64,000 nt of DNA from an uncultured Mycoplasmatota bacterium. GTDB lineage: Bacteria > Bacillota_I > Bacilli_A > Izemoplasmatales > Izemoplasmataceae. Below, piece by piece: positions 6,786 to 38,113 of the stretch; the stretch's first letter is position 1, and each line of letters begins with the position of its first letter. The stretch lies in the NCBI GenBank assembly GCA_913062645.1, contig CAJXVW010000002.1, positions 301,433-365,432 on the forward strand, given 5' to 3'. Below the pieces are notes generated by a model. The model did no database searches. It saw only the letters and a program-made list of their open reading frames with translations, and was not told where the DNA came from. The translations under genes were made by a program, and so were the position numbers.

Positions 6786-6811
6786 GTCATTCACTCCTGA
6801 TCAAATTGGGT

Positions 6812-15450: not shown

Positions 15451-15502
15451 TAGACACTAGATATGCTGACGACTATGAGTTTATTATCCGGAGGTTTGTT
15501 GT

Positions 15503-19133: not shown

Positions 19134-20859
19134 TATTAGCGACTATCCTTTCCAATGTACTTCTTAAAAAATCATCGCCAATCTGCTCAACACGCTTTAC
19201 ATCTTGCTCTGTATACTGATTGTTAATAATTCTTCTTATCAACTTCTCAGAATAAGCTCCTATAGTTGATTTAATGATTAAATTATCTACCGATATATCT
19301 CCTATGTGCTTGGCTATGGTCTTATTTGGATTGTTTCCAACATGTAAATGATCTAGATTACTTAAGTCAAGGATATTTGTTGATGGAATGTCAGAGATAA
19401 TATATGGTGAATGTGTTGAAATAATAAAATGGTAATTACACTTCACCCCTTGAAATATATTTGTGATGTCCTGAATGAGATTTCTAGATAACTCTGGATG
19501 AAGGGTTAAATCAGGTTCATCAATAAGAATATATATATCCTTAGCACCTACGCTACTATTGATATTGTCTTCAATAGCTATTTTGGATAGATCTAATAAA
19601 AGACTTGTGTAGTCCTCTTCTCCTTTTGATCCGCTAAAAAGATCTAGCGAGGTAAACATCCTTATCATCTCATTGTCGAACTCTTGATCAGAGAATGTAA
19701 CGCTTTCCTTAAAAAGATACCTGCGCGCAACGTCTTTGTCTTGAAGATTTTCAATCATATCTAAGAAATCATTATACTTATTCAGTACTCTTTCGTACAA
19801 AACATTAGAATCATCAAAAAGAACAATCGGTCCGTCACCTTTATCCTCAAACCTATTTATGCCTAAAGTACCGGCATAATTCAGTAATACTCTCAGATCT
19901 TCTTTTGCAATGTCAACACTAAATGAGTTTGTGTTATGAGACAAAACAGTAAGAATTTGACCCATGTCATTGATGAAGTCTTCGCCTGTTAATCTAGTAA
20001 TCAATCCTTGCTCTTCGAAAACATGTAGTCCACCAAAAAACTCCTTCACGATGTTAGTCATTAAAAATTCATACAAGTTGATATCTTTGTACTCTTTTTG
20101 ATTTAACATGGTATTAAACCCATAATACTCATCATATTCAATGTCGAAATTGAGCAAATAGTCTGATACTTCTTTTTCGAATTGCTTTTCCCTGTCAGCA
20201 TCTTTAGGGTATAGCTCATAACTCATTGGTTTGAATGATAAGCAAACAGCATCACTATCGAAGTTTCGAAGTTTCTCCTTTAAGAAAACCTTGTTCTGAA
20301 AAAAGAATATCAATCTCTCAAGTTGAGAGCTAATTCTTAATTTCTTTCTTCTAGTAAAATAGTATCCCCCATGAACTCGAGTATCTAAATCAATATTAGT
20401 GTAAATGGGTCCTCTATCTTTGGCTTGATCCATATCATATAAACGAACATAAGTTTCATATTCTTGCTTACTCCAAAAGGGTTTTGTAACAAATCCTCTG
20501 TCTTCCGAGTCATCTTTTCCATTGATAACTACATTTGGAGTTTTCTTATTTCCGGTATATCCTTCTAAATAGCACATTTCTCTATTATTTACGTAAACTA
20601 AAATATACTCATGTAAATATTTGAAGCTTAGCATCTCAAGAACTGTAGTCTTCCCGGCACCATTTATCCCTAATAGAGCTGTAAAATGGACATTATTGTC
20701 ATCTGTATGATAAAAGTCAAAGATACCAGTTTTCCTAGTGATGTTAATTATGAAATGATCTTCATCAATTTTACAATCTACATTATACTTCATGTCAAAC
20801 TGTATAAATTGATTATTGAAATTTCTTGCTTTAATTACATAAACCCCAATTAGTTTCAT
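19123..20859 (-). CDS. ABC/AAA_15-type ATPase, Septu PtuA-like
   Basis: Walker A LLGINGAGKTTVLE, Walker B IYILIDEPDLTLHP, and ISTHSPYI. No Toprim or nuclease domain seen. Overlaps the downstream HNH gene. Confidence 0.55.
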   Translation of the reverse strand: MKLIGVYVIKARNFNNQFIQFDMKYNVDCKIDEDHFIINITRKTGIFDFYHTDDNNVHFTALLGINGAGKTTVLEMLSFKYLHEYILVYVNNREMCYLEGYTGNKKTPNVVINGKDDSEDRGFVTKPFWSKQEYETYVRLYDMDQAKDRGPIYTNIDLDTRVHGGYYFTRRKKLRISSQLERLIFFFQNKVFLKEKLRNFDSDAVCLSFKPMSYELYPKDADREKQFEKEVSDYLLNFDIEYDEYYGFNTMLNQKEYKDINLYEFLMTNIVKEFFGGLHVFEEQGLITRLTGEDFINDMGQILTVLSHNTNSFSVDIAKEDLRVLLNYAGTLGINRFEDKGDGPIVLFDDSNVLYERVLNKYNDFLDMIENLQDKDVARRYLFKESVTFSDQEFDNEMIRMFTSLDLFSGSKGEEDYTSLLLDLSKIAIEDNINSSVGAKDIYILIDEPDLTLHPELSRNLIQDITNIFQGVKCNYHFIISTHSPYIISDIPSTNILDLSNLDHLHVGNNPNKTIAKHIGDISVDNLIIKSTIGAYSEKLIRRIINNQYTEQDVKRVEQIGDDFLRSTLERIVANNDR

Positions 20860-22887: not shown

Positions 22888-24042
22888 ATGAGTAAACTAC
22901 ATCCATTCGTTAAGTGGCCAGGTGGTAAGTCATCAGAGTTAAAGGTTGTTTTACCAAACTTGCCAAACAATTTCAAAAGATTTTTTGAACCCTTTGTTGG
23001 AAGTGGCGCGGTCCTCTTTGCGCTATCAAATCAAGACTCTATCAAAAGCTTCGTGATCAACGATTTTTCCGAAGAACTATGTATGTTATACAAGTATGTA
23101 CAAGAATCAAACCAGCTTTTTCATAAATCTTTGATACTCCTAAGAGAGAACTGGTTGCAACTTGAAGCGGTTGTTGAAGCCCACAGTAATGAACTGCTAA
23201 ATTACTATTGTTCGTTCAAGCGCAACGGTGGTGATGAAGAGAAGCTCAACAACTCTTTTGAGTGCTTTCTTTACCAGCACGCTGCAGACTTCGGTGGAAT
23301 GTTATTAGACGATGAAAATCCCCATATCGAAAACCTCCGAAACGAGCTGTTAAAAACAATACGTAGAAAGTTCAAGCGAATGAGGCAGCTTGAAATGGAA
23401 TCTGGTTCATTCGATGAAACCATGTACATACCAAACATAGAAACAGTATTTAAGTCGGCATATTACACACATATTCGTCATCTATATAATAACCAAGAGA
23501 ACTTCAGTATTTCGCTAGAACGGCATATAGCTCATTTCTACTTTATCCGAGAGTACTGCTACTCCTCGATGTTTCGGTTTAACACTTCAGGTGGTTTCAA
23601 CGTGCCCTATGGAGGGATGAACTATAATCGAAAAGATTTCACGAAAAAGATTGATTACTTGAAAAGCATGGAACTGCTGCAGTTTCTGAAACAAGTTGAA
23701 ATATACAATCTCGATTTCGAAGAATTTTTAGGAGATTTCCAGATGGATGAATACGACTTCATATTTCTTGATCCTCCATATGATAGTGAATTTAACGAGT
23801 ACGATAGAAACTCGTTCAATCGAAAGGACCAAACCAGATTACGAGATTACCTGAAACAAACAAAAGCCAAATTTCTTTTAATCATCAAAAACACGGATTT
23901 TATTGATCAACTATACTCTAATCAAGGCTTTTACATCACTGGTTTTGATAAACGATATACGGTGAGTTTCATGAATCGGAACGAGCAAGATGTTGAGCAT
24001 TTGATTATAACAAACTACAAACTGCGAGGTGAAAAAGCATGA
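22888..24042 (+). CDS. Dam-family (D12 class) N6-adenine DNA methyltransferase with a long insertion
   Basis: FVKWPGGKS, FEPFVGSGAVLF (motif I) and FLDPPYDSEF (motif IV). At 384 aa it is clearly longer than classical Dam as I remember it. Confidence 0.8.
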   Translation: MSKLHPFVKWPGGKSSELKVVLPNLPNNFKRFFEPFVGSGAVLFALSNQDSIKSFVINDFSEELCMLYKYVQESNQLFHKSLILLRENWLQLEAVVEAHSNELLNYYCSFKRNGGDEEKLNNSFECFLYQHAADFGGMLLDDENPHIENLRNELLKTIRRKFKRMRQLEMESGSFDETMYIPNIETVFKSAYYTHIRHLYNNQENFSISLERHIAHFYFIREYCYSSMFRFNTSGGFNVPYGGMNYNRKDFTKKIDYLKSMELLQFLKQVEIYNLDFEEFLGDFQMDEYDFIFLDPPYDSEFNEYDRNSFNRKDQTRLRDYLKQTKAKFLLIIKNTDFIDQLYSNQGFYITGFDKRYTVSFMNRNEQDVEHLIITNYKLRGEKA

Positions 24043-24398
24043 AAAAACCACTATCTGAAAATGAAATTGCGAAAAAGGCAATTATTTTGGTTGGACTGGA
24101 TCCAAACATCAACACTTCAGAGCTCATTGAAAAGCTGGAGACGGTGTTTTATCCTCTTCATCCCCAGGATCAAGCAATACTCCAAGGCCGACGTGACAGT
24201 CATTTTTCGCAAAAGGTTCGGAATCTGAACTCCCATTACGATACCAATTTTTTCGGTAAACATGTGGACAAATCCGGCACCAGAGATAACGCCACAACTT
24301 GGATACTGAACCAGAGAGGTCGTAAGTTGTTCGAATCACTAATGACCCAATTGATCAAGAACAGTGGTGACATACTTGATAAAATCATTGAGAACTGA
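24039..24398 (+). CDS. Small protein, possibly winged-helix
   Basis: 119 aa. The ATG overlaps the methylase stop (ATGA). RRDSHFSQKVRNLNSH ... WILNQRGRKL resembles wHTH recognition segments; this is weak evidence. Confidence 0.4.
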   Translation: MKKPLSENEIAKKAIILVGLDPNINTSELIEKLETVFYPLHPQDQAILQGRRDSHFSQKVRNLNSHYDTNFFGKHVDKSGTRDNATTWILNQRGRKLFESLMTQLIKNSGDILDKIIEN

Positions 24399-24421
24399 AA
24401 CCTAAAAAGGAAGGTGATGCT

Positions 24422-26311
24422 ATGAAATGGAGATTCCCAGAGAATGCAACTGGTAGTGTCAAAGGGTTAAACGACCAGGTTGAGACCTTTATGAAAAATC
24501 CCTTGGGGTCGCTCGCAAAAGAAATTTGTCAGAACTCTCTTGATGAAATTCAAGACCTAGAGCAACCCGTTGAGATTCATTTTCAAACGTTTGACATGCC
24601 AACAAAAGACTACTTGGAGGGTATTCCCGAAACCCTTCAACAAGAGTTCAAATATTGGGATCAAAGACAAGAACACGACAAAAAAGTTCCCAATTTTTAT
24701 CAGCATGCACTCGATCTGATTTCCAAAGAAACGGTTCGATGCCTAAGAATAAGTGATTTCAACACCACGGGCCTCACTGGAAGCAAAGAAACCGATACAG
24801 GAAAATGGAATCATCTAATCAAGTCCACTGGTGTGTCTGATAAAAAGGGTGGACAGCTCGGAAGTTTTGGTCTCGGTAAGTTCGCTCCATTCGCTAACTC
24901 GAGTTTCAGAATGGTATTCTACAGCACCAAAGACACAGAGGGTTTAGAGGCCACACAAGGTGTCGCTCGATTGTCCAGTTTCCGTGAGGACTCGGGCCGT
25001 CTTCGCGATGGTTTGGGTTATTATTGTGCCGATGAGGATTATTCGGCAATCAATAAGTGGCTATCGCTCGATTCAGAATACACAAGAACCAGCGCTGGAA
25101 CCGATGTATTCATTGTCGCATTTAATGGAGGCGAAGATTGGATTGATCAATTGATCCAATCACTCTTGGACAACTTCATTTTTTCGTTTTTATGGAACAA
25201 GCTCATCGTTTCAATCAATGGCAAGCTTATCAATAATAGCAACATTCATACGATAATCGATGAGGCGAAATCAAAAGAAAAAATCGACCCCCTGACCTGT
25301 GATTATTATGAGTCGCTTATGGGGGCTGACAAACACCATTTCATGAAAACCATCTTCCAAAAAAATGATGTTGAACTGGTCATGAAACTAAAGAAAGGTC
25401 TAGGTCGAAAAGTCGCAATTGTAAGAAATAACGGAATGAAGATATTCGACAAGGATCGAATTTCGGCAAGGGCGCAATTCGCTGGAGTATTGACCTTGAG
25501 TGGTGAAAAAGTTAACTCCTATTTCAAACGCCTGGAAGATCCCACACATAGCGCCTGGGATCTAAGCAGAGCCCCAAATCCGAAAGATGCCGAAAACAAG
25601 CAAAAGCAAATATATGGTTTCATCAACCAGTGCTTCAACTCACTAATTGACAAAGAGCGGCCGGATACGATGGACGCCATAGGAGCAGGTGAATTTCTGC
25701 CTGATTTCGGAGACTTGAATAGCGACAAACAACCCGCTGAGAGTCTCACAGATCGAATCATCAAGGACCTAGAAGTCAAACGATCCAAACCTAGAAATCC
25801 AAACCGCGCGGACACCCAAGAAGACAATGATGATGGGACCAATATCGACACTGGAGAGCTCGGTTCGGCTGATCCAGACGGCAACGTATTGGTAGACAAA
25901 CCCGGTGATTTGGGTACTGGCGGATCGGGAACGCATGATATTGGCAGTGATACTGAAAAGGGATCCAAAGATGATGATGGGGATAGGCACGTTCTTGAAA
26001 AATCAAAGATTCATGACATTGATGTGAAATTCCGTGTAGTTCGTTTTGGGAGCGGTTTGCGAATCAATATTATACCAAAATTCGATATATCTGTTGGTGA
26101 ACTCGAGTTGTTCTCATCTGGCGAAAACGTGAAGGATCCGATCAACGTTCTTTCTGCTAAATCTGATAAGTCCAAACTGAAAGTTCTCAAGCAAAACGGC
26201 GTTGAGGTAACAAATCTTAAGCGGGATGTCGCGAACTTTGTATATGTCGAACTAGAGCGTGAATTTGGATATGCAGTGGAGGTTAGCCTATATGAAATTA
26301 AACAAAAATAG
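24422..26311 (+). CDS. GHKL (Bergerat-fold) ATPase-like protein, 629 aa, with an acidic low-complexity region
   Basis: AKEICQNSLDE (N-box), ISDFNTTGLTG (G1) and GGQLGSFGLGKF (G2). A D/G-rich segment lies around nt 25800-25990. Confidence 0.5.
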   Translation: MKWRFPENATGSVKGLNDQVETFMKNPLGSLAKEICQNSLDEIQDLEQPVEIHFQTFDMPTKDYLEGIPETLQQEFKYWDQRQEHDKKVPNFYQHALDLISKETVRCLRISDFNTTGLTGSKETDTGKWNHLIKSTGVSDKKGGQLGSFGLGKFAPFANSSFRMVFYSTKDTEGLEATQGVARLSSFREDSGRLRDGLGYYCADEDYSAINKWLSLDSEYTRTSAGTDVFIVAFNGGEDWIDQLIQSLLDNFIFSFLWNKLIVSINGKLINNSNIHTIIDEAKSKEKIDPLTCDYYESLMGADKHHFMKTIFQKNDVELVMKLKKGLGRKVAIVRNNGMKIFDKDRISARAQFAGVLTLSGEKVNSYFKRLEDPTHSAWDLSRAPNPKDAENKQKQIYGFINQCFNSLIDKERPDTMDAIGAGEFLPDFGDLNSDKQPAESLTDRIIKDLEVKRSKPRNPNRADTQEDNDDGTNIDTGELGSADPDGNVLVDKPGDLGTGGSGTHDIGSDTEKGSKDDDGDRHVLEKSKIHDIDVKFRVVRFGSGLRINIIPKFDISVGELELFSSGENVKDPINVLSAKSDKSKLKVLKQNGVEVTNLKRDVANFVYVELEREFGYAVEVSLYEIKQK

Positions 26312-27158
26312 ACTCTACCTATATCCGGTTCTGCACGAACTGAGAGATGACTATTTGGAAGACTCAAAGTTTTCTGTGGTTATTGAAGCAAAACAGCGTA
26401 CCACGAGTGTCGATTTGAGCGTGACATTTACGGTAAACGATAACCTGATTGAACAATATATAAGGGAAGAGAAATTCTTGCAGATCGTTCACGTCGAATG
26501 TCCGAAAACCAAGTTGAGGACTATACACCGAATCAAGAGTGACGAGATAAAAATCGATGTCAGTATACCTTCTGGTTTGCTTAATGGTGTAGTTGAAATT
26601 TCACCAATGATTATCTCCAACTATACCGGCCCTTACTACAATCCGAACTTCTCAGATGATTACAATGGTTTGGATATAGAATTGTCAATAGGCAATATTG
26701 TGGCATATGATGATACGCGGTACTTCTATGTTGAGAAAGATCGCATGGAATACGTTGACGTTGAATCGGTGTTCGTCTTGAACCGGACAAAAAACAATCA
26801 CATGATAATTGATGTAACCAGTGGTGATAAAATTGTTGTCGACCTTCCAAATGAAATCTATGCAAGTTATTTTGCCTTGGATGATGAAATCAATCGAACC
26901 ATCTCTTTGCAGATGATCATTTATCCCGCAGTTATCAAAGCGCTTGAAATGCTTGCAAATGAAGAGACCCGTTCACATGTCAAACATAAAAAGTGGTATC
27001 TCACCTTCAAAAATCAGCTGGCCAAGTACGATTATGACATCGATTCTAACTCATTGTCCGACATGGACGAGAAGTACGTTGCGGCACAAAAATTGCTCGA
27101 AGATCCTCTTCTTAGATCATACATTGAACTTACCAAGCTCCAGGAGGGATTATCATGA
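26292..27158 (+). CDS. Hypothetical protein (288 aa), cassette 2
   Basis: ATG 26292 lies behind GGAGG and overlaps the GHKL stop by 20 nt. I recognise no motifs. Confidence 0.45.
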   Translation: MKLNKNRLYLYPVLHELRDDYLEDSKFSVVIEAKQRTTSVDLSVTFTVNDNLIEQYIREEKFLQIVHVECPKTKLRTIHRIKSDEIKIDVSIPSGLLNGVVEISPMIISNYTGPYYNPNFSDDYNGLDIELSIGNIVAYDDTRYFYVEKDRMEYVDVESVFVLNRTKNNHMIIDVTSGDKIVVDLPNEIYASYFALDDEINRTISLQMIIYPAVIKALEMLANEETRSHVKHKKWYLTFKNQLAKYDYDIDSNSLSDMDEKYVAAQKLLEDPLLRSYIELTKLQEGLS

Positions 27159-27907
27159 GACTCAAGATATTCCGAGAAGATCCTTTGATTATTTTCAGGC
27201 GGAAGTCTCAAATAAAAGAAAACATTCAATTCTACTCTGAAACGGACAATGATTGGCAACAAATGATGATCGATCAGCCCTTGTTCCAAGAGTTCGGCAA
27301 GCAACTGCAGCCGATTGAACTCGACATGAGTTTTTCCGAACCGAACAAGTCCGATGTCGTCAACGCAAAGATCATTTATGAGGCATTGAGCTTTCTGAGT
27401 GACAGCCAAGCATCGGAGGAACGACTTTGGGCCGCATTGTGTCATGATATGTTTTGGGATTACATGCAGTATCGATGGCCCCTTTCTTTGACCAAGCGTT
27501 CAGAGGTAAACTATGTTTTGGCACATTATTTCTTCTCCGAACCGTCTAGAGGTCGTTATTTCAATGGCATTTCGAGATTGTGGTGGTTTGCTAGGAGCAC
27601 ATATGATCGAACCAGAGAGAACCCCTACGAAGTATTGGAATATTTCGGCGGCGACCTTAGTGGTAAATTGTATCCTCTACTTGCCGGTCATAATTACTCA
27701 AGCAACCCCATTATCATGCGGCAGTTCATGGATGGTCTGTTCGAATATGAGAAGTCACTTGGTGAGCAGGTAGGAAGAAAACAATTTAGCTACCTTACGA
27801 AAAGGTTGGACCTGTATTCAGGCGGAGTGCAACCAGATCTGTTGGCTGAACAAGGATTACTCAAAGACATCGTGATTGAAATCCTGCATGAGTTCGAATC
27901 CCGATAA
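27155..27907 (+). CDS. Hypothetical protein (250 aa), last gene of cassette 2
   Basis: ATGA start/stop overlap with the preceding gene. Trp/aromatic-rich (ERLWAALCHDMFWDYMQYRW) with no catalytic motif recognised. Confidence 0.45.
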   Translation: MRLKIFREDPLIIFRRKSQIKENIQFYSETDNDWQQMMIDQPLFQEFGKQLQPIELDMSFSEPNKSDVVNAKIIYEALSFLSDSQASEERLWAALCHDMFWDYMQYRWPLSLTKRSEVNYVLAHYFFSEPSRGRYFNGISRLWWFARSTYDRTRENPYEVLEYFGGDLSGKLYPLLAGHNYSSNPIIMRQFMDGLFEYEKSLGEQVGRKQFSYLTKRLDLYSGGVQPDLLAEQGLLKDIVIEILHEFESR

Positions 27908-28089
27908 ATCTCCGTCTGTTAGCTTGTTCGTTTCGATTTGACAACATCTGCACACAGACGAGCTATCCCTATGTTAATAATGCAGACTGGAGTAATTAAA
28001 TTATTTCCAAAGATCTCAGTTTGACATTTTCTAGCAGACTAAGTTATGTTATTATATTAATAGAATTGCGGTTATGTAAGGAGAAAAAA

Positions 28090-28170
28090 ATGCTGAGATT
28101 CGGGTCGAACGAAATCATTTTGATACTCAATTTAATCGTACGTGCAAATCATCTTGAGGATAGGTACTGA
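28090..28170 (+). CDS. Possible 26-aa leader ORF upstream of the giant gene
   Basis: TAAGGAGA SD 7 nt before the ATG. Sequence MLRFGSNEIILILNLIVRANHLEDRY. TTGACA at 28021-28026 lies upstream. Confidence 0.2.
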   Translation: MLRFGSNEIILILNLIVRANHLEDRY

Positions 28171-28236
28171 AACATGCAATCTTTTTGTTTGCATGTTTTT
28201 GTTTGATCACGGGTGTAATGGGAGGATGACAAGAAC

Positions 28237-31200
28237 ATGAATAAAAATGATCTAAATGCGGCTGTTGAGTCATGGAAAGCGCTTAATGAGAACTCAATTA
28301 TTAAATTAGATGAAATGGTCTCCAAGTTGAATAAGGGCTTAATTCCATCAGAAAAGCAAATCTCCGATTTGGTTTCTGGATTATCAGAGTGGGATATAAT
28401 CAGAGTTCGAATCAAAGATTATATATCATCCATTCAAAAGGATGGAAATATAGACACAATAACTCTAGAGGAGTTCACAAAGCTTTCTGATGAGTACATC
28501 AGCTCTTTTTTTGAAGCCTCCTCTAGAATTACAGATATTCTTGAACAGTTCATCCATGTGAAATCAGACGAGCAATATTTTGATGCGGCGATTGAGGAAT
28601 CTCGTAACGACGCAAAAGCATTACTCGAGAAGGTTCCCGACGCCAAATCACCAGAAAATATCGAAACCCTAGTTAAACAGACGGAGATCTACGATTACTT
28701 CATTAAAGCAATCCGGATTGTGGCAGAAAATGTAAAAACGAAGTCTGAAGTACTAAATATGATACCGAGCCTCTTCTCTCCCGATGTAACTCGGGGAGTG
28801 TATACGAACATGTACTACATTGATCAAGACAACACCGCAACTAGATTGGATAAGACATCCGAAACCAATGACTCATCTGACGCCAGTGAACCATCCGCGG
28901 ATACCAATGAAAATAAGGTTGACCTAGTCAAAATCGTCAAAGGTAAGAGAAAAAAAATCAAGGTCTCATCCTTTAAAGGTGATATGGAAAGCCATATTCA
29001 CTATAAGATTTTCGTGACAATTGGAACATATAAGGTTATGAGTCTTGATCAATTGTGTTATGTGGTGAATGATGAATCCAAAAATAATTATGATGAAGAA
29101 TATATTTCTGCGATCGCAGGATCATTGATTAGTCGAGGACACCTATATGAGCTTGAAGTGGCGGGTCTCAAAGAAAATGTATATGTCGTATCCACATATT
29201 CCCGGGAAGCTTTTGACAAGGCAAGTATAAAAGATAGACTGTTCAGTTATTCCAACTTCGGATATCCCGAAGTGTTCAAGATCCCCTTATGGGAAAAAAC
29301 GGGAGCCCCCGAGGCTCGATCACATTACTACAATACAGCGGCTGTAATACAATATGGCAAGTTGATTCAACAATTGTATGATCATACACCAGAACGAAGC
29401 GAAGCAATGAAACACTTGGTGGCCTACGCAGAGAATTTCGCTCTTAAGTTCAATGATGAAGAGGGAAATAAACAAACCGCGGCAATCATTGGTTATGATA
29501 TGTTACTTGATGATCAGATTGATATGCTATCGAATGAGGAAAATCCGATTAGTGTCGCTATTTTGATTGATGAATCACAAATCGAAAACTGCAAATCCGC
29601 TCTAAAACCCCATATGAGTGACTTCATCAATAGGGCTTTCTTGATAACAACTGAGCATGGTTCTGTTTTCCAATATCGTAATGAAGCCCTTACTGAGATT
29701 GGTACCATTTTTAACATGTTCAATGATTCCGCCAAGCCAAAAAGATCCAAGAAGTCCAAAACCCAGCTTCAAGATGAGACTGGCCGTCAGAGGGAAGAGA
29801 TTACATCAGGCCACACTCAATCCACATCAAAACAAAAGGATAAAGCAACGGAAGAGAACAAGAAATCAATTGAAAAAGAATCTACTCAGAAACCAAGTGT
29901 TCCAAAAAAGAAACAAGAAAAATCCTCATCGAAGGAACAGCTTGATTTAAAAGCAATCGCAAGTCAAATAATCGAAAACAATGAGGACTTCGAGATCTGC
30001 AACGTTCAGTTGAGTGACTTGATATGGACAACCATTCAAGAAGGCCGGGTTCCCGAAGCATTGGTACTGACCAAAGCCATCATCGAATCCAACAAAACCA
30101 GCGATAAATGTGAAGAGTTCACTGCCGTCTATGATTGGTTCCGCCACTCCATCAACAATAATCTTGATGAACTCAAATATACTAGTGCTAATATTGAAGA
30201 ACTCGATTTATACGACATTTCCGATTCACTTATCCCAACCAAAATACTATCCACAATGAAGCAATTGGCATTAATTTGGGCAATGCTCCGCCCAACCAAA
30301 AAATACGACCACGGATTCAGAGATAACCATAAGGAGATTATGGACGTAAATACCGGAGTGAGCCTGAAAAGCATTCACCATTTGCTTCACAATATGCATT
30401 TAAACAACGAGATGATGTCCGGATTCTCAAAATCTATCGTATCACTCTTGGAATCGAATCGAGACAGAAACATTGTTCAATCAGATTTTGCAAAACGGGC
30501 AAGCCATTTACAGATTGTCCCATCTCCCACCCAAAGAATCAAAAACCTTCATATCGTATACAAGAATGCTTTCGGAAAATCCTCACCATTATACGAACTG
30601 CTTTCACTCGTTAGAGACAATGCCTCAGATGGTATTGAGAAACTATCGAAATCCTCATTTTATAAAGTTGTACACCATCATGAGATGGATGACACGACCA
30701 TTGAGATTAACAATCACGAGGTTGAAGAGTTCATTTTGAACGAGTGGAACAAAGTTCGTGGTGACTTTGACTTGGAAAACTCCGCATATAAAAATATAAA
30801 GAGTCACATTGTAAGAAGACTCGAGTTGACCATCGATTGGTATGAGCATGCCAAGAACAACAATGTCCTAAATACCAAGATTCTCAACAAGTTCGATTCT
30901 GTCAGACAGCGGGTAATCGGTGCCATTCTTAACATTCACAACAAAATTGAATCAAGTTCGAGAAAACCGAATCCAGTTGTTGCCCAACTCGTCCGCTTTT
31001 CAACGAATCGTATGAAAGACTATCTCCAAGGTGTCTCAAACCAAAACGATTATTTGAACTTCTATAAAACGCCATACGTTTTGATGATTGATCAAATTCC
31101 CGACTTCAAAGCTGAGTTTATCTCAGTAACGGGTTATGAACCTTGGCGTTTGATTGTGAAACACCTAGCAACTGATTTACTTGATCTAGAAGATGCGGCT

Positions 31201-33570
31201 CATGCAATAGACAAAAGGGATAATCCTCATTGGTACTGTAATTACGGTCAGCTGGAACAGATTCATGACATATTGAACCCAGACAAAGACATAACTGACT
31301 TTGAAATGGCAAAAAAAGCTGCTGACAAGTACGCAGACCATAAGTACCAAGAATTTTGCAACGAAGTTGAAATGGCATTTGCGCTATTTCGAATCAACGA
31401 ATCACAAACGGAGTATCTAACTTCACTTGCAGACCGCAATAAAGATTATTTCGTCCAATATTCTGAAGCCGGCAAATTCGTCTTTTTCCTAGAAACGCTG
31501 GAAAAGCAAATCCAGATTGCAACACTCAAGAAACAAGAACTGTTCATGCAACGGTTTAGAAAAATCGAGCTGAATATCGACAAAACTGATAATAATATTG
31601 AAAAAGTCTTATCCATAACGAAAAACTGGATAGATAAGGGTAACTTCACAGTTGCTGAAGAATATCTCAATAGTCTCGCATCCGGTGAGGCCGAACTTAT
31701 ATTTGAAAGCATTCAGAACATCGAGTTCACGAACTATCGCAACGACTTCTTTGATAAACATCATCAACTAGCTCGTGCATGCTCTGCGAATTCAGGGAAA
31801 CGCCTCGCCAGTTTTGGTGCAGATGTCATTTCTTCATATCAGCCAAAGACATCAAAAAGTCAGTTCAATAAGACTGTTCGTAACATCACTGGCAACTGGC
31901 CGCGCATAACCAAAAACGAAGGCAGCTCAGGCTCTTATGCAAAATCAGAAAACGATATTAGAGATCTAATGAAGGTTTTAGGTTTCAGCGCAACAACTGC
32001 AACATATGACATAGCACATCGAAAAAATTACAGCAACTCATATGATGTCGATGTAGTTGCTACCAATGTCATCTTACCAAACTTCAGCCATCCGATTCCT
32101 GAGTTTGGTACCCAAATGACAGAGTTCGTAAAAGTCTTGGCGATATTTGGCGATCGAGGAAACAAAGGCATCACGACTGACATAAGCAATCTTCTTTCTT
32201 CAAGTCCGACGATAGTATTGATTGACAGGGCCCTAAAACTTAGTGACAGAAGAGAAATAGCTGAACTTGTGAAAGGGAACTCCCTCAATATTCCTCAACC
32301 TTTCATCTTAATCGACTGGGTACTGGCATTGTATCTCTGTACAGTTGTTGAGAGCGATCGGATGGCTGCTCTACTTCAATGCTCACTTCCCTTCACCAAT
32401 GTGATGCCATTTGTCAAACTTTCCGGAAAAGTAGCGGACGAAATGTTCATTGGTAGAAGCGACCAATTAAAAGACATCCTTTCCAAGAACGGTAGCAAGT
32501 TGGTCTACGGGGGAAGACAACTGGGCAAGACTGCGTTGTTAAGACGCGCTCAAAGCCTTAAAAACAATCCTGAAAACAAGGTTTACGCTTTGTATTTGGA
32601 AGCGAAGAACATGAACGAGGAAAAATTAACTCAAGAATTAAGTGAACTATTCTTGAAGAACGAGCTATACGTAACGGGTAGTTCAAAAGTCAAAACCATC
32701 GAAGAGTTCTTCAAAAAACTAGATGACATATGGGACAACCAAATCTCGGAACTTCACTTATACATAGACGAAGCAGATGCATTTCTTGATGAATGTTCAA
32801 AAGATGGCTATCAGTTGTTGAATCACTTCATAAAACTGGCTTCAAACAGAAATTTCCGTTTTGTGTTCGCTGGATTGCATGATGTTCTGCGATCACACAC
32901 TGGAACTTCACATAACTCCTCATTACCCCAACTTGGTGATCCACTCGCTATCAAACCACTATCACCATTCGAAGGGTTTAGTCTTCTCGCAAAACCATTA
33001 TCATTCATGGGCATAGATCTAGAGTATGAACAAGCAGCTTTGATACTTGCAAACTCAATGTACTATCCTGGCATCATTCATTTGCTTGGGTATTCCTTAG
33101 TAAACTCGATTTCTGAGCAATACAAATCAAAATTTTATGATGCACAAAACAATCCACCGTATTTTGTCAATGCAATCAACCTCAAGAAAATATTCCGTAA
33201 TGAAAACATAAATGACAAAATCAAGGAACGTTTGGATATGACGCTGGATCTTGAAAAACCAATTATGCCTTATCGAAAGATTGCTGCTGTTTTCTCATAC
33301 CTTTATCACACTGACAAGGACATCGTTGGTTCTGATGGAATTCCCATTGAGCGCATCATGAATTTCATCAAACAGCAAAAAGTACCTTCCATCAAAGATT
33401 TGTCAGCTCCGGGGTTAAAGAATCTATTGCTTGAAATGGTAGGCATGGGGATATTGGCAAGCAACATTAATGATACCAAGTTCATGTTGCGCAAAACTAG
33501 ATTCCGTGACCTCATAGCTCGAGATGATATGGAAGCTATGGCAATGATCGATCCGGAGTTAAGCCAGTGA
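28237..33570 (+). CDS. Giant (1777 aa) protein with a C-terminal P-loop NTPase (Arch_ATPase/AAA+-STAND-like) module
   Basis: FIGRSDQLKDIL...LVYGGRQLGKTALLRRAQ (Walker A, about nt 32500-32540) and LHLYIDEADAF (Walker B, about nt 32755-32785). A Lys-rich disordered stretch lies around nt 29730-29940. The N-terminal ~1300 aa are helical and unrecognised. Confidence 0.55.
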   Translation: MNKNDLNAAVESWKALNENSIIKLDEMVSKLNKGLIPSEKQISDLVSGLSEWDIIRVRIKDYISSIQKDGNIDTITLEEFTKLSDEYISSFFEASSRITDILEQFIHVKSDEQYFDAAIEESRNDAKALLEKVPDAKSPENIETLVKQTEIYDYFIKAIRIVAENVKTKSEVLNMIPSLFSPDVTRGVYTNMYYIDQDNTATRLDKTSETNDSSDASEPSADTNENKVDLVKIVKGKRKKIKVSSFKGDMESHIHYKIFVTIGTYKVMSLDQLCYVVNDESKNNYDEEYISAIAGSLISRGHLYELEVAGLKENVYVVSTYSREAFDKASIKDRLFSYSNFGYPEVFKIPLWEKTGAPEARSHYYNTAAVIQYGKLIQQLYDHTPERSEAMKHLVAYAENFALKFNDEEGNKQTAAIIGYDMLLDDQIDMLSNEENPISVAILIDESQIENCKSALKPHMSDFINRAFLITTEHGSVFQYRNEALTEIGTIFNMFNDSAKPKRSKKSKTQLQDETGRQREEITSGHTQSTSKQKDKATEENKKSIEKESTQKPSVPKKKQEKSSSKEQLDLKAIASQIIENNEDFEICNVQLSDLIWTTIQEGRVPEALVLTKAIIESNKTSDKCEEFTAVYDWFRHSINNNLDELKYTSANIEELDLYDISDSLIPTKILSTMKQLALIWAMLRPTKKYDHGFRDNHKEIMDVNTGVSLKSIHHLLHNMHLNNEMMSGFSKSIVSLLESNRDRNIVQSDFAKRASHLQIVPSPTQRIKNLHIVYKNAFGKSSPLYELLSLVRDNASDGIEKLSKSSFYKVVHHHEMDDTTIEINNHEVEEFILNEWNKVRGDFDLENSAYKNIKSHIVRRLELTIDWYEHAKNNNVLNTKILNKFDSVRQRVIGAILNIHNKIESSSRKPNPVVAQLVRFSTNRMKDYLQGVSNQNDYLNFYKTPYVLMIDQIPDFKAEFISVTGYEPWRLIVKHLATDLLDLEDAAHAIDKRDNPHWYCNYGQLEQIHDILNPDKDITDFEMAKKAADKYADHKYQEFCNEVEMAFALFRINESQTEYLTSLADRNKDYFVQYSEAGKFVFFLETLEKQIQIATLKKQELFMQRFRKIELNIDKTDNNIEKVLSITKNWIDKGNFTVAEEYLNSLASGEAELIFESIQNIEFTNYRNDFFDKHHQLARACSANSGKRLASFGADVISSYQPKTSKSQFNKTVRNITGNWPRITKNEGSSGSYAKSENDIRDLMKVLGFSATTATYDIAHRKNYSNSYDVDVVATNVILPNFSHPIPEFGTQMTEFVKVLAIFGDRGNKGITTDISNLLSSSPTIVLIDRALKLSDRREIAELVKGNSLNIPQPFILIDWVLALYLCTVVESDRMAALLQCSLPFTNVMPFVKLSGKVADEMFIGRSDQLKDILSKNGSKLVYGGRQLGKTALLRRAQSLKNNPENKVYALYLEAKNMNEEKLTQELSELFLKNELYVTGSSKVKTIEEFFKKLDDIWDNQISELHLYIDEADAFLDECSKDGYQLLNHFIKLASNRNFRFVFAGLHDVLRSHTGTSHNSSLPQLGDPLAIKPLSPFEGFSLLAKPLSFMGIDLEYEQAALILANSMYYPGIIHLLGYSLVNSISEQYKSKFYDAQNNPPYFVNAINLKKIFRNENINDKIKERLDMTLDLEKPIMPYRKIAAVFSYLYHTDKDIVGSDGIPIERIMNFIKQQKVPSIKDLSAPGLKNLLLEMVGMGILASNINDTKFMLRKTRFRDLIARDDMEAMAMIDPELSQ

Positions 33571-34700
33571 TTTTTGGTGCCTCGATTTGGTGGGATTTGA
33601 TAACCGGTCCGCGAAGATTCATTCAAGAAGCTTCCAGACTAATCCGTGAAGGCCATTCTATAATGCTTCAAATTAGTCAGGACACCCCTTGGCGAAGTGA
33701 ACTTCGTCTTCAGATTGAACCCCAGTCTAAAACAAGCAAATCTATAATGGTGCTAGATTTTGAAGATACTTATGACGGAACTGATTTTGACAATTACATT
33801 CTAAATCAAATTGCTCCCCAAAAAGCCAATGATTACCGCGCACATGTGCATGGTAATATACAGAATTTCATCACAATGGAAAATTTACTGTCCGACAGAA
33901 TACTTTGGATCAAAGGCATTACACAACAACACAATTCTCGGTGGCAGGAGTTGTTTTCGCAGTGGAAAAGTTCCATTGGACAGTTGGTCCTAGAGTTGAC
34001 TCATAATCAAGAACGAAACCTAGTTAAGCTGGGAAAAAATAAATCCCATTTGTATGATCTAGATTTCATAACGAGCGAAGACAATCGCGTGTTCGTATCC
34101 ATGTTGTGTCGTGAGATGTCGGAAAACGCAACTCACCAGCGCTACCTTACATCATTGTTGGTACACATGTGTGGTATGGATGCGGAAGTTAGCTCAGCAT
34201 GTTTGGAAGAATCTGATTTTCTAAAAGAAGATCCGCTGGAGATAATTACCAAAGTCTACAACAAGCATTTTTTTGGGGGATTCAGAGGATCGTCATCAAA
34301 CAAAATGATTGAGCATCCCTTTTATCACATCAAAAACGATAATCGATCAGCCTTGGAAAAACGAGTCCGTAAAGCACAAGTGGAAGTCTTCTTCCCCATA
34401 ATCGAGGACATAAGAATGGATTTCATAAATCTACACACTGACACACTAAGAAGAATCATGCCAAGTAGTGATCGTTTTGGCAAAGCTGTTCATTCCGTAT
34501 ACGACATGGATATCAACATGGTCGTTTCATGCATTGAGACCAACCGGAATCGGGACAAAGATGCCAAAATCATTTACTACAGTGAAGAGTTTAAATCAAT
34601 CCGTAAATTTCGTGACATTCGGAACAGGTTGGCTCATGCTGAAGTGTTGAACTTGAGTGAAGTTCAGATAATGATTCAATGGAATAGAAAGATATCTTGA
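33567..34700 (+). CDS. Protein with a C-terminal HEPN-like Rx4H motif
   Basis: The GTG start overlaps the giant gene's TGA (GTGA). KFRDIRNRLAHAEVL near the C-terminus resembles the HepT/DUF86-type RNxxxH motif. Confidence 0.5.
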   Translation: MIFGASIWWDLITGPRRFIQEASRLIREGHSIMLQISQDTPWRSELRLQIEPQSKTSKSIMVLDFEDTYDGTDFDNYILNQIAPQKANDYRAHVHGNIQNFITMENLLSDRILWIKGITQQHNSRWQELFSQWKSSIGQLVLELTHNQERNLVKLGKNKSHLYDLDFITSEDNRVFVSMLCREMSENATHQRYLTSLLVHMCGMDAEVSSACLEESDFLKEDPLEIITKVYNKHFFGGFRGSSSNKMIEHPFYHIKNDNRSALEKRVRKAQVEVFFPIIEDIRMDFINLHTDTLRRIMPSSDRFGKAVHSVYDMDINMVVSCIETNRNRDKDAKIIYYSEEFKSIRKFRDIRNRLAHAEVLNLSEVQIMIQWNRKIS

Positions 34701-34901: not shown

Positions 34902-35444
34902 ATGATTACTAAATGTCAACGTTGTGGTAGTAGAGACATCACTTGGAAGCGTGAAGATTACTACCGCTGCAACACCTGCAAGATCTATGCGAAAGTCATC
35001 AATCAAAAACTGATCAATCGAAAGATCCCAACTCATTGTCCTATATGTGACAGTGATAATGTCGTCGGAACATCAGATTTCAATATCTGTAAAGACTGCG
35101 GAAGTGAAGTCAGGTTTAGGAAGTCGACTGTGAAACGAAGAATATTCAACAATTATGATACTTGGATGTATACCGTGCATAATACCAAGTATGGCCTCTT
35201 GAGATATTGTGGTGTTCAATATGACTGTGATGATGAGCTGGATCGATTGCATCTAATGATCCGCCTAGTAAACAATGATGTAATTGAACTTGATGAAAGC
35301 ATCAACAACTTGCATTATCGTTTCAAAGATTCATCTGTGATCAATTCTTTTAGGGAAACTTTTGCATACAAAGATCAAGACAACGCGAATCTAAACTCCA
35401 AAGCCGTGATACTAAATCTAAAAAAAGTTCGTATTATCTCTTGA
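34902..35444 (+). CDS. Double zinc-ribbon protein (180 aa), unknown function
   Basis: CQRCGS-x15-CNTCK and CPICDS-x13-CKDCG. Lies directly downstream of the riboswitch-like leader. Confidence 0.5.
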   Translation: MITKCQRCGSRDITWKREDYYRCNTCKIYAKVINQKLINRKIPTHCPICDSDNVVGTSDFNICKDCGSEVRFRKSTVKRRIFNNYDTWMYTVHNTKYGLLRYCGVQYDCDDELDRLHLMIRLVNNDVIELDESINNLHYRFKDSSVINSFRETFAYKDQDNANLNSKAVILNLKKVRIIS

Positions 35445-35470
35445 CACATACGGGGATAAGATGATACAAT
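35441..35470 (+). promoter_or_regulatory. Strong promoter for the 438-aa gene
   Basis: TTGACA, 18-nt spacer, TGATACAAT. Confidence 0.5.
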
Positions 35471-35514
35471 GTATTTGTAGCATCACTTGACATTATCGGA
35501 AATGGGGTAATCAC

Positions 35515-36831
35515 ATGTTCTATCCAACCAATCTATTAGCAATCATACAAAGTGACTTCAACGGCTACGAAGAACTTGCAGAAGAACTATCAGAGAAGTA
35601 TGATCTCAAAATGACGGGAAGCACGCTGTATCGCTATGCCTCGGGTGAGAGAACGCCCCCTTTGGAGATTTATCTCGCCGTAGCGGATCATTACAACGTA
35701 TCGCCTGATCAAGTCGCTGGTTGTTACTGCCCTATGTGCATGAATCTACTTCCATCAAACTCGTTTCAAATTGATCGTTTTGGAACAAAAACCAGTTCGA
35801 GATCCGATAAACATGTGGTGATCGACTGTTTGAACTGCGGGTACCTTGCAATGGACAAACACAATCAATACTTCGATGATGAACTTGAGATTAGTTACTT
35901 CGAAAATGAGAGTACCATTGTAACAGATTACATTACAGCCTTTCGCAGAGAAAACAACCTTGAATGGCACGACGTAATCGAGGTCGAAGTAGAATGCATA
36001 ATCGACCAAGTAATCAACAGATTGACTTTGTGTCACGATACAAATACCAAAACCTACATGTTACATCCAATCAATTTTGGTTTCGTGGGCGGGTTAAGCA
36101 CAAATGCCAATGTTTCAGCTCCAAGTTTTGATGATTCTGACATCATTTTGGAGGGAACAAATGCAAATGGCTATTGGCGATTGGTCAGCCAAGAAGATGA
36201 GCCCTACTACATTTTCGAGCTGGAAGCGGGAACTTGCATAGCAAGAAAAACGAGTGCAACCATTCCTGAAATAAACATCATTAGAACTCAAATCTTCTCA
36301 AGCGATTATGTCATTGAGCATGAAAACTGTTATGAAATCACTCGTTCCTTCCTCGTTCGTGATACCCAACTTGCTGAAATGCTCGTCAAAGGCATCGATC
36401 ATGCTGAAGTGCTAAATAATGAATTCCTGTTTGCATTCATGGATATCGACACTCCCGAAAAAGTATCCAACTATGAAGATGTATTGAACAATGCCAAAAC
36501 ATATGCTCAACTGATTGAAGAAAAAAACCCATTCTTCTACTCGAACATGTCATCAAACAGGTATTGGTACTACTTTCCTGAAATTGACACATTCGCCGCG
36601 AACAAGTTTCTCGCCTACAAAAACAACAATTACCTGCTTTACAAGTATTTCACCAACAAAAAGCAGAATCGCGATAAGATGGATGGCGGCCACGCCAATA
36701 GAATTTTATCCAACTTCTTCGTAAAAACCAGTGATCCAACCATCTTGAAGAAGTTTGATAAGTATAAATTAGAACATAATATCAAAGAAACAAAAAGAAT
36801 CCGAAACGCCGAAATCAGAGTCAAGAAGTAA
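35515..36831 (+). CDS. HTH (XRE-like) + zinc-ribbon protein, 438 aa
   Basis: N-terminal TGSTLYRYASGERTPPLEIYLAVADHYNVSPDQV, then CYCPMC ... DCLNCG. The rest is unrecognised. Confidence 0.45.
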   Translation: MFYPTNLLAIIQSDFNGYEELAEELSEKYDLKMTGSTLYRYASGERTPPLEIYLAVADHYNVSPDQVAGCYCPMCMNLLPSNSFQIDRFGTKTSSRSDKHVVIDCLNCGYLAMDKHNQYFDDELEISYFENESTIVTDYITAFRRENNLEWHDVIEVEVECIIDQVINRLTLCHDTNTKTYMLHPINFGFVGGLSTNANVSAPSFDDSDIILEGTNANGYWRLVSQEDEPYYIFELEAGTCIARKTSATIPEINIIRTQIFSSDYVIEHENCYEITRSFLVRDTQLAEMLVKGIDHAEVLNNEFLFAFMDIDTPEKVSNYEDVLNNAKTYAQLIEEKNPFFYSNMSSNRYWYYFPEIDTFAANKFLAYKNNNYLLYKYFTNKKQNRDKMDGGHANRILSNFFVKTSDPTILKKFDKYKLEHNIKETKRIRNAEIRVKK

Positions 36832-36853
36832 TCTAATTGGAACGTGAGGGATC

Positions 36854-36943
36854 ATGAAATCATTCAGTAGTCTTGTTAGAAGCATATCAAAGGCCATTTT
36901 TGCGATCGTCTTCGCAATGCTCGCGATCGCCAAGAAGAAATAA
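36854..36943 (+). CDS. Possible 29-aa hydrophobic peptide (type-I-toxin-like shape)
   Basis: MKSFSSLVRSISKAIFAIVFAMLAIAKKK: a single TM-like helix with a KKK tail. GTGAGGGA lies upstream. Not in the ORF track because it is too short. Confidence 0.25.
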   Translation: MKSFSSLVRSISKAIFAIVFAMLAIAKKK

Positions 36944-36958
36944 GGAAGGGAAGATACT

Positions 36959-38113
36959 ATGCCGAAACAAAGCACGAAAAACATTCAGGACGCAATCGTA
37001 CGACTCGGAGAACAACTGGGATTCATCAGCATCGCCGAGTTTCGCACCAATCACAAAGGCACGTATTCACCGATCATCGATGTCGCCTGGTTGATCGATC
37101 TCGATCAACACTTCGATATCGATGCGCTCAAACCGTTGTTCGGAAAAGAGTACGACAATCTCAACACACTTCACCGTTTTCCGATCGCCGGGTTTGAGAT
37201 CGAGGGTTCGAACACCACCAGCAAGAATCAGCTCAGTAACTTCGCCAATCTCGCCGCGTCCAACTTCTTCTTCAAGTTCGTGGTTGTCGACAATGCCGGC
37301 GCCTTGAAAGAAAATGACACCTACCGCCGAGGTGTCAAGATCGCAAACTATTTCGAATCTCTGATCGGCGACAAACAAATCATTTTCTCCGACTGGCTCC
37401 ACATCAAGGAGTCGATCGAACGGATGGACGCCAAAGAGTTCGAACTACTTCATTTTGATTGGCTGATGTGGCTGAAATCCATCCCGAACAATGAAACATC
37501 ACGATCCGCTGTCGGCGGAGAAACCAAGTCCGTTCCCGTTTTCGATTCGATCACGCCGCACTTCCGTGCATCCGGACTTGAACTCCGAGAGAATCATCAA
37601 CCCAACTGGCAGACAATGGAGTTTGAAATGAACAAAGATCTCCTCAAAGCCGAGACCATTGAAAACGAGCAGTTGAAATTCGCTCTGCGCCAACGGTTCT
37701 ATCCGCAACCGGACCATGCAACCATCAAAGACGTGAGAACCGTGAAAGACGCATTTTATGTCCCGAAACTCGATCTGGTCGCAGGTTTCCGGGCTCCGGA
37801 TCCGTTCATTCACTGGTTGTCGATCCTAGCCGGATGCAAACACAATGATGTGGTTTACAGTCCATTACTGTACAACATTCTTCATCTCAACAAGAAGGAT
37901 TTGTTCATCCCATTGATTTCCTGTGAAATCGAAACATCGTCAAACAAACATCTCAATGGCGGATTGATCAACATGGCCAAGAACTCGCACATCGGATTGC
38001 TTGTGAGCAAAGCCGAAGGTGACTCCCACATCTCGTATTTCTCAAAGCAACTCGGATTGAACAATATATATCATTACTGTTATGAAACAACAAATCATAA
38101 GGAGGAACAATGA
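36959..38113 (+). CDS. Protein with two tandem PD-(D/E)xK-like nuclease motifs
   Basis: IIDVAWL ... AGFEIEGSNTTSKNQLSNFANLA, and again KLDLVAGF ... SCEIETSSNKHLNGGLINMA. Visibly more GC-rich than its neighbours. Confidence 0.45.
   Translation: MPKQSTKNIQDAIVRLGEQLGFISIAEFRTNHKGTYSPIIDVAWLIDLDQHFDIDALKPLFGKEYDNLNTLHRFPIAGFEIEGSNTTSKNQLSNFANLAASNFFFKFVVVDNAGALKENDTYRRGVKIANYFESLIGDKQIIFSDWLHIKESIERMDAKEFELLHFDWLMWLKSIPNNETSRSAVGGETKSVPVFDSITPHFRASGLELRENHQPNWQTMEFEMNKDLLKAETIENEQLKFALRQRFYPQPDHATIKDVRTVKDAFYVPKLDLVAGFRAPDPFIHWLSILAGCKHNDVVYSPLLYNILHLNKKDLFIPLISCEIETSSNKHLNGGLINMAKNSHIGLLVSKAEGDSHISYFSKQLGLNNIYHYCYETTNHKEEQ

Follow-up and report, generated by a model that had tools for sequence, protein, structure and literature searches.

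A pair of overlapping genes located on a 64,000-nt stretch of DNA from an uncultured Mycoplasmatota bacterium (contig CAJXVW010000002.1; the whole stretch is referred to as the window) was analysed and found to belong to a widespread, operon-encoded family that is very probably a conflict system and probably a new anti-phage system. The first gene encodes a 1777-aa protein, termed the giant, that ends in an ATPase module with intact nucleotide-binding motifs. The second encodes a 377-aa protein, termed the partner, that ends in a helical domain carrying an R-x4-H motif with invariant arginine and histidine. With moderate confidence we propose that the two proteins make up an autonomous, horizontally mobile module directed against phages or plasmids, in which the giant would act as sensor and switch and the partner as a HEPN-like RNase effector.

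Operon structure and distribution of the gene pair

Open reading frame (ORF) calls placed the giant gene at 28237..33570 and the partner gene at 33567..34700 of the forward strand, with ATG and GTG as their respective start codons. The TGA stop codon of the giant gene (33568-33570) and the GTG of the partner gene (33567-33569) share the tetranucleotide GTGA, resulting in a 4-nt overlap. This confirmed the arrangement described in a first-pass annotation of the window, which had reported a 5.3-kb ORF overlapping a 377-aa ORF as GTGA. A GGAG Shine-Dalgarno sequence is found on the same strand within the 3' end of the giant gene (33554..33557), 9 nt 5' of the GTG. In public gene calls the partner is instead begun at an internal ATG (M33) and is 345 aa or 317 aa long. 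These truncated calls leave out a conserved WWxxITGP segment and mask the GTGA overlap (window 33567-33662; 6511-7334 in locus L093). The tryptophans W8-W9 are conserved family-wide and are encoded 5' of the internal ATG, so that homology favours the GTG start and, with it, the overlap.

Giant relatives were counted in a profile scan at one genome per species, and at least 560 reference-genome stretches were found to encode one. These stretches derive from Clostridia, Lachnospiraceae, Ruminococcus, Selenomonadaceae, Paenibacillaceae, Collinsella, Synergistetes, Spirochaetes, Fibrobacter, Desulfovibrionaceae, Alistipes and Aeromonadales. Conservation of the pair was evaluated by HMMER searches of all ORFs in 80 of these loci, 72 of which had enough downstream DNA to be assessed. 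A partner homologue was encoded directly 3' of the giant gene and on the same strand in 67 of the 72 loci, spanning many phyla, and in 58 of these 67 the genes overlapped or were separated by 20 nt or less. The most common spacing was −4 nt (20 loci), the same as in the window. The co-occurrence survey thus upheld the two-gene unit put forward in the first-pass annotation: giant and partner are a real functional unit. The annotation had, however, handled the pair as a singular oddity, whereas it is one representative of a large family. When 1.84 billion representative proteins were searched exhaustively with HMMER, 1331 partner clusters were obtained at E ≤ 1e-3 and 743 at E ≤ 1e-10, nearly all of them stand-alone proteins of 340-400 aa, and all named members in public sources are designated "hypothetical protein". 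A word-indexed homologue search under-reported the family, returning 5 distant giant relatives, which are followed by a 355-374-aa ORF in every informative contig, and one partner relative; the profile and exhaustive searches corrected this.

The same pair is carried on plasmids of Salinibacter ruber and Thiodictyon, where RefSeq lists an "ATP-binding protein" followed by a "hypothetical protein", and plasmid copies of the pair adjoin integrases, recombinases and a transposase. A DNA-level search of 5,426 complete Escherichia coli genomes did not find the pair. At one locus (L047) a 619-aa ORF sits between giant and partner, and at another (L007) the downstream ORF was rejected as a partner since it encodes a RecG-like helicase. 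The remotest of the giant relatives (L006, 559-16139; 2115 aa with 25% coverage) lacks a partner. Behind it come, in a DISARM-like arrangement, a 932-aa ORF, a DrmA-like helicase of 1187 aa, a further ORF of 682 aa and a protein of the PLD family.

The ATPase module of the giant

The anatomy of the giant was derived from an alignment of 26 diverse family members. The N-terminal region (residues 1-579, 28237..29973, forward strand as for all features of the pair) ranges in length from 570 to 1374 aa across the family and has no family match. It includes a low-complexity linker rich in Lys, Ser and Glu at residues 498-568 (29728..29940; 17 K, 12 S and 9 E in 71 residues), which is the Lys-rich linker noted in the first reading of the sequence. 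The middle region (residues 580-1329, 29974..32223) is conserved, with a constant length of 731-788 aa in the 26 members, and is likewise without a family match. Neither of the two blocks matched Pfam, PADLOC or, by sequence, the PDB, and tblastn matches of giant relatives begin at about residue 500-700. The C-terminal ATPase module of ORC/Cdc6-STAND type (residues 1330-1777, 32224..33567) is constant in length at 435-456 aa and holds most of the invariant columns of the family, which fall in GGRQLGK, in DExD and in an AGLH...R segment.

The only Pfam matches of the giant, to AAA_22, ATPase_2 and AAA_14, are confined to residues 1419-1550, in line with the earlier statement that a C-terminal NTPase is its sole recognisable module. 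All motif strings quoted in the first-pass annotation were located, namely FIGRSDQL (1404-1411), GGRQLGKT (1425-1432) and LYIDEAD (1508-1514) in the giant and RNRLAH (352-357) in the partner. The Walker A motif GGRQLGKT (32509..32532) is invariant from G1425 to K1431 in the 26 giants, and the same applies to D1511, E1512 and D1514 of the Walker B motif LYIDEAD (32758..32778). The ATPase motifs are therefore intact, and on the basis of these motifs the ATPase is predicted to be active. Among the 26 giants, AAA_22 was matched by 21, ATPase_2 by 16, AAA_14 by 9, AAA_16 by 7 and nSTAND1 by one. The family consensus scored 35.3 bits against AAA_22, above the cut-off of 27, followed by ATPase_2, AAA_16, DnaA, TniB and NB-ARC, the last at an E-value of 0.003 that falls short of its cut-off. 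Since the AAA_22 cut-off was passed with these models following behind, the ATPase is placed in the ORC/Cdc6-STAND neighbourhood of AAA+, which agrees with the AAA+-STAND-like class initially assigned to it. NCBIfam and PADLOC scans of both proteins gave no match, Pfam scans of the two proteins and rescans of the family consensus sequences against Pfam and PADLOC gave nothing past generic AAA models, and a PDB sequence search using profiles of both families returned nothing meaningful.

A further conserved segment was observed just before the ATPase (window 32086-32500, approximately giant residues 1284-1400), in which H1285, P1286, G1291, R1338, D1360, P1385 and P1391 show no or almost no variation. 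This segment has no family match and might be a separate small domain.

The partner and its HEPN-like domain

The partner was modelled with AlphaFold2 from a 42-sequence alignment (predicted local distance difference test score, pLDDT, 81; predicted template modelling score, pTM, 0.73). The model comprises an alpha/beta part (residues 1-165), a helical segment (170-237) and a very confident helical C-terminal domain (250-377). In a Foldseek search of the PDB with this model, weak matches were obtained, the best at an E-value of 1.5e-3, to the NB-ARC domains of plant NLRs, ORC subunits, clamp-loader delta-prime/RFC, RuvB and p97. From the model and these matches, the N-terminal two-thirds (residues 1-245, 33567..34301), made up of the alpha/beta domain, which includes W8-W9, and the helical, lid-like segment, look like an AAA+/STAND-like module, which the first-pass annotation had overlooked. 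A Walker A motif is absent from it: Walker A-like strings occur, at inconsistent positions, in just one of 70 genome-derived partners and two of 141 full-length representatives. The partner was also considered as a paralogue of the giant's own ATPase, and this was rejected (hhalign probability 0.3%).

The C-terminal part of the partner (residues 246-377, 34302..34697) was in addition modelled in isolation, giving a pLDDT of 88, and forms a helical, HEPN-like domain. Its R-x4-H motif, RNRLAH (R352, N353 and H357; 34620..34637), is kept throughout the family, with R352 and H357 being invariant in 70/70 genome-derived partners and 141/141 full-length representatives. The residue following the arginine is N in 68 and 138 of these, respectively, and mostly H or D in the exceptions. 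The RNxxxH signature reported for the window protein is hence a family-wide trait. HEPN superfamily members are defined by an Rx4-6H motif that ends the penultimate helix and in which the residue following the arginine is polar and mostly N, D or H; the superfamily is further characterised by a four-helix up-down bundle and by metal-independent RNase activity (PMC3710099, Anantharaman et al. 2013). In both AlphaFold2 models the penultimate helix (340-356) finishes with RNRLAH, with H357 at the start of the loop leading to the last helix (363-376), so that the modelled position of the motif agrees with this definition (PMC3710099). A second conserved HEPN element, an acidic residue typically found as Ex3[KR], lies in helix-2 near the motif (PMC3710099). 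In the partner, P277, E280 and R283 of the segment FPIIEDIR (34392..34415), which forms part of the long first helix of the C-terminal domain, are near-invariant in the 70 partners, and this segment is a possible second active-site element.

Profile searches pointed in the same direction. Sub-threshold matches to HEPN families were found for 10 of the 70 partners (HEPN_Swt1 in 6, Abi_2 in 2 and RiboL-PSP in 2). When consensus sequences of 8 partner subfamilies were used, HEPN_Swt1 was matched by 7 and DUF4145 by 3, again below threshold, the best HEPN_Swt1 match having an E-value of 0.003 and 18 bits against a cut-off of 27.5. These matches are in register, as the motif segment of the partner always aligned to the motif-bearing end of the model. 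Because the motif, its position in the models and the recurrent sub-threshold matches to HEPN_Swt1 and DUF4145 agree with one another, the C-terminal domain likely belongs to HEPN.

Genomic context of the pair

The window copy of the pair is situated in a low-GC island of roughly 40 kb (38% guanine plus cytosine compared to 52% in the flanks) that is rich in defence genes. A PADLOC and context scan placed an N6-methyltransferase at 8108, a C5-methyltransferase at 9807 and a restriction endonuclease-like gene at 10874. These are followed by three ORFs at 12360-16492 without a PADLOC match and, on the minus strand, by PDC-S26 (16545-18080) and a Septu-like/PDC-M62 ATPase paired with an HNH-like protein (18186-20859). 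The stretch immediately 5' of the pair (22888-27907, forward strand) carries, besides a Dam-type N6-adenine methyltransferase gene and a 119-aa ORF, the PADLOC candidate system PDC-M33 with its components A, B and C (E-values of 5e-174, 2e-60 and 5e-64). The third PDC-M33 component, M33C, is DUF6339, and no mention of PDC-M33 or DUF6339 was found in the searched literature. Downstream, on the forward strand (34902-38113), lie genes for a double zinc-ribbon protein of 180 aa and for a protein of 438 aa with an XRE-type helix-turn-helix (HTH) at its N-terminus, as well as a 384-aa ORF that had no match. No tRNA gene that could flag an integration site was found in the window.

The genes around the pair are arranged differently in almost every genome. 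No conserved third gene was found beside it across more than 80 loci, and neither PDC-M33 A/B/C and the 119-aa ORF upstream nor the three downstream ORFs (zinc-ribbon, HTH and 384 aa) occur at any of the more than 90 other pair loci. The pair is autonomous of its neighbouring genes. A survey of the two nearest genes at either flank of the pair at other loci, 103 proteins in total, yielded strong matches to Eleos LeoA/LeoBC, Lamassu LmuB, Mokosh MkoA/B/C, DISARM DrmA, PARIS AriA, Septu PtuA, PD-Lambda-5, PDC-S13 and restriction-modification components. The pair is thus set in defence islands both in the window and elsewhere, and such a defence-rich neighbourhood is the usual signature of a defence gene. 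At locus L002 (4877-16841) Mokosh-like genes, a 397-aa weakly MkoB-like ORF and a 1302-aa AAA_11/AAA_12 helicase, lie directly 5' of the pair on the same strand.

The pair had been said to lie behind its own promoter. A promoter-like site (TTGACA, 18 nt, TATGTT; 28021..28050, forward strand) is indeed present in the 329-bp gap 5' of the giant gene and matches the expected hexamers at 10 of 12 positions. The frequency of such sites in the region equals that due to chance, however, with 20 found compared to 22.2 expected from shuffled sequence, and the site is therefore weak evidence. That the pair is a transcription unit of its own is better argued from the 329-bp intergenic gap.

Relation to known systems

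The pair is undescribed in Pfam, NCBIfam, PADLOC, RefSeq names and the searchable literature, DefenseFinder and later PADLOC releases lying outside this check. The first-pass annotation held the architecture to be unlike that of Avs, and this was upheld, as neither protein matched Avs or any other PADLOC model. The pair resembles Avs in having a P-loop switch of the AAA+/STAND neighbourhood within a very large protein with much unassigned, sensor-like sequence, in a nucleic-acid-targeting effector, which is putative in the pair, and in its location in defence islands. In Avs, however, one polypeptide holds the effector at its N-terminus, the NTPase in its centre and the sensor at its C-terminus, whereas the NTPase of the pair makes up the last ~450 residues of the giant and the putative effector is a separate gene product that includes a putative dead AAA+-like domain. 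Furthermore, the Pfam model that fits the giants best is AAA_22 or ATPase_2, and not NACHT or NB-ARC, nSTAND1 being matched in a single member.

A second point of comparison is BREX, in which the large ORC/Cdc6 ATPase BrxC is paired with the inactive, STAND-like BrxB, and in the analysis of which HEPN domains fused to DUF499 ATPases were interpreted as back-up effectors (PMC12839542). The pair would have in common with BrxC-BrxB the combination of a large ORC/Cdc6-clade ATPase and a small, putatively inactive STAND/ORC-like protein. It would share with the BREX-related DUF499 proteins (HmaC) an association between an ATPase and a HEPN domain, which in those proteins is N-terminally attached and of the Swt1/Abi2 clade, the same clade to which the weak matches of the partner belong (PMC12839542, PMC3710099). 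In contrast to BREX, the conservation seen across more than 80 loci does not extend to a methyltransferase, PglZ or helicase, and neither the two proteins nor their consensus sequences matched BrxB, BrxC or DUF499 in Pfam or PADLOC. The domain order differs as well, given that the ATPase is C-terminal and not N-terminal in the giant, and that the HEPN-like domain of the pair resides on the partner and not on the ATPase. The pair is accordingly neither an Avs nor a BREX or BREX-related system.

The partner is similar to HEPN abortive-infection and toxin proteins (AbiD/AbiF Abi_2, RnlA, PrrC/RloC and Tha) in its C-terminal helical domain, in the R-[N/D/H]-x3-H motif ending the penultimate helix and in its defence context. 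It differs from them in lacking a significant sequence or structure match to any, in the fusion of the HEPN-like domain to an AAA+-like domain, and in being strictly coupled to an ATPase of ~1800 aa in place of an antitoxin or an ABC-type NTPase. MADS was rejected as an identity for the pair. MADS is built on a type I-like methyltransferase with a specificity subunit and a kinase. In a test for its mad6-8 core proteins, the mads models of PADLOC, among them mad2 and mad8, matched neither giant nor partner. Likewise, MANTIS/Gao_RL, the ternary iSTAND MoxR-vWA systems and a 2026 survey of STAND proteins do not describe the pair. By analogy, the pair appears to work most like a STAND/ORC-type switch with a HEPN effector, or like the active/inactive pairing of AAA+-like proteins in BrxC-BrxB, and we infer that it is an undescribed variant of the defence kind that combines an NTPase switch with an RNase effector.

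A relationship to pPIWI-RE proteins was observed on the Azospirillum oryzae plasmid NZ_CP054617.1 (L094, 1588-13028), where a 3256-aa protein comprises a complete, Argonaute-like pPIWI-RE module (pPIWI_RE_X, E-value 3e-16; MID, 5e-12; RNase H/PIWI, 4e-30) fused to a giant-type ATPase block. The gene that follows encodes a partner homologue (E-value 2e-11) that has kept R-x4-H (RRGMAH) and gained a C-terminal AAA_33 P-loop kinase domain. The 3256-aa protein was considered as a giant-partner fusion and rejected, since its C-terminal tail fails to match the partner profile. The RefSeq name of the partner homologue, "AAA family ATPase", was likewise set aside as support for an AAA+ origin, because it stems from the AAA_33 domain. 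Similarly annotated matches ("RNaseH domain-containing protein") occur on Microvirga and Bradyrhizobium plasmids and may have the same arrangement. No match to PIWI, MID or RNase H is found in the window giant, and no ATPase fusion is described in the founding paper on pPIWI-RE, in which the genes stand alone or form a triad with REase (restriction endonuclease) and DinG genes (PMC3702460). Together with the variable N-terminus of the giants, the Azospirillum fusion shows that the core of ATPase and partner accepts different N-terminal modules, as would be expected if the N-terminal part is a sensor. Tentatively, and on the doubtful side of even, the ~450-aa ATPase block and the partner may be a general chassis that converts a signal into RNase activity, an active AAA+ domain and a dead one joining in a hetero-oligomer. 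Its front ends would be interchangeable, being either pPIWI-RE, for guide-directed sensing of nucleic acids, or, in the large branch to which the window copy belongs, the ~750-aa region with its variable N-terminus, which matches no known fold and may therefore be a new kind of sensor of invaders.

Proposed mechanism and alternatives

In the mechanism that we propose, the variable N-terminal region and the ~750-aa middle region of the giant would recognise a cue derived from the invader, which the C-terminal ORC/Cdc6-STAND-type ATPase would turn into a nucleotide-dependent change in conformation or oligomeric state. The partner, presumably produced in a fixed ratio to the giant via translational coupling, would dock on this ATPase through its catalytically dead AAA+-like domain in a manner comparable to the inactive subunits of ORC, clamp loaders and BrxC-BrxB. 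The invariant R-N-x3-H of its HEPN-like domain would form the RNase site. Assembly would gather partner domains and switch on the RNase, upon which the infected cell may be arrested, possibly as abortive infection, or the RNA of the invader destroyed.

A number of observations weigh against this mechanism. Every HEPN profile match is under the Pfam cut-off and is carried largely by about 30 residues around the motif, and the second element of the partner, E280-x2-R283, reads Ex2R compared to the typical Ex3[KR]. The HEPN fold proposed in the first-pass annotation stood with respect to the placement of the motif and the recurrent profile matches but gained no positive result from the structural check set for it beforehand: Foldseek with the confident model of the isolated C-terminal domain returned no HEPN structure and nothing significant (best E-values of 3.8 in the PDB and 0.39 in BFVD), although Foldseek copes poorly with small, divergent helical domains. 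The AAA+-like assignment of the partner is built on Foldseek E-values of 1.5e-3 or worse, and profile-profile comparison (hhalign) of the partner and giant families shows no relation. On the genomic side, the association with defence islands is qualitative and not a statistical enrichment. In many species of Selenomonadaceae the pair occupies one fixed chromosomal slot, flanked by an epimerase/cupin/128-aa gene on one side and NAD synthase on the other, some Selenomonadaceae genomes hold a giant without an adjacent partner, and a lone 361-aa partner paralogue is found between serS and a DeoR regulator (Selenomonadaceae-type loci L003, L008, L009, L012, L049, L058 and L059, together with L010/L011, L052, L060 and L065). 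Such features are less typical of a mobile defence system.

One alternative is that the pair is a BREX-like scaffold directed at DNA, in which the giant, like BrxC or DUF499, would load on or track invader DNA and the partner would be an inactive co-regulator akin to BrxB, its R-x4-H domain having a binding or regulatory function or serving as a back-up effector. The proximity of the giant ATPase to ORC/Cdc6-type models (AAA_22, ATPase_2, DnaA and TniB), the presence of ORC subunits and clamp-loader delta-prime among the Foldseek matches of the partner N-terminus, the failure of Foldseek to confirm HEPN and the published precedents of the BrxC-BrxB pairing and the HEPN-DUF499 back-up effector (PMC12839542) all fit this view. 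Genes for a methyltransferase, PglZ, helicase or nuclease are however not conserved beside the pair, the PADLOC models for BrxB, BrxC and Hma remained unmatched even by the consensus sequences, and the motif, in which R and H never vary and the R is followed by N, is as predicted for a catalytic HEPN site and exceeds the needs of a scaffold. We consider a BREX-like scaffold unlikely. Less likely still is a non-defence chromosomal ATPase machine, for instance one in chromosome or RNA housekeeping, that has ended up in islands by chance in some genomes. While the fixed Selenomonadaceae slot and the paralogue next to serS are what such a machine would predict, the patchy spread across phyla, the plasmid copies beside mobility genes, the dense defence-gene content of the low-GC window island, the variety of defence systems among the neighbours elsewhere, the absence from every complete E. 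coli genome searched at the DNA level and the variable N-terminal region of the giant, typical of conflict systems, all speak against it.

It had also been suggested that the pair may act with the upstream methylase/GHKL cassette, and its genes do lie adjacent to the Dam-type methyltransferase and PDC-M33 A/B/C on the same strand, 329 bp apart. Membership in PDC-M33 or in a larger window system of this kind was rejected and is very improbable: no PDC-M33 gene or 119-aa ORF accompanies the pair at any other locus, which largely refutes the suggestion, the pair is found alone between housekeeping genes, and PADLOC defines PDC-M33 as a system without giant and partner. The sensor-switch with a HEPN-like RNase effector is the reading that we prefer.

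Implications

If the pair is confirmed as a defence system, it would represent a widespread family that current tools have missed, present in at least 560 species-level genomes and carried by gut Firmicutes, Collinsella, Synergistetes, Spirochaetes, Fibrobacter, Paenibacillaceae, Desulfovibrionaceae and proteobacterial plasmids. On a practical level, its smaller protein is N-terminally mis-called in public annotation and is everywhere named "hypothetical protein". The fusion to pPIWI-RE provides an entry to the poorly understood PIWI-RE proteins, and if the chassis described above holds true, its ORC- and clamp-loader-like logic would be undescribed for bacterial immunity outside BREX. Confirmation would furthermore make the pair the second case, after BrxC-BrxB, of an active ORC/Cdc6-type ATPase operating with an inactive AAA+-like partner, and as the likely effector resides on the inactive partner, the role of dead subunits would become directly testable.

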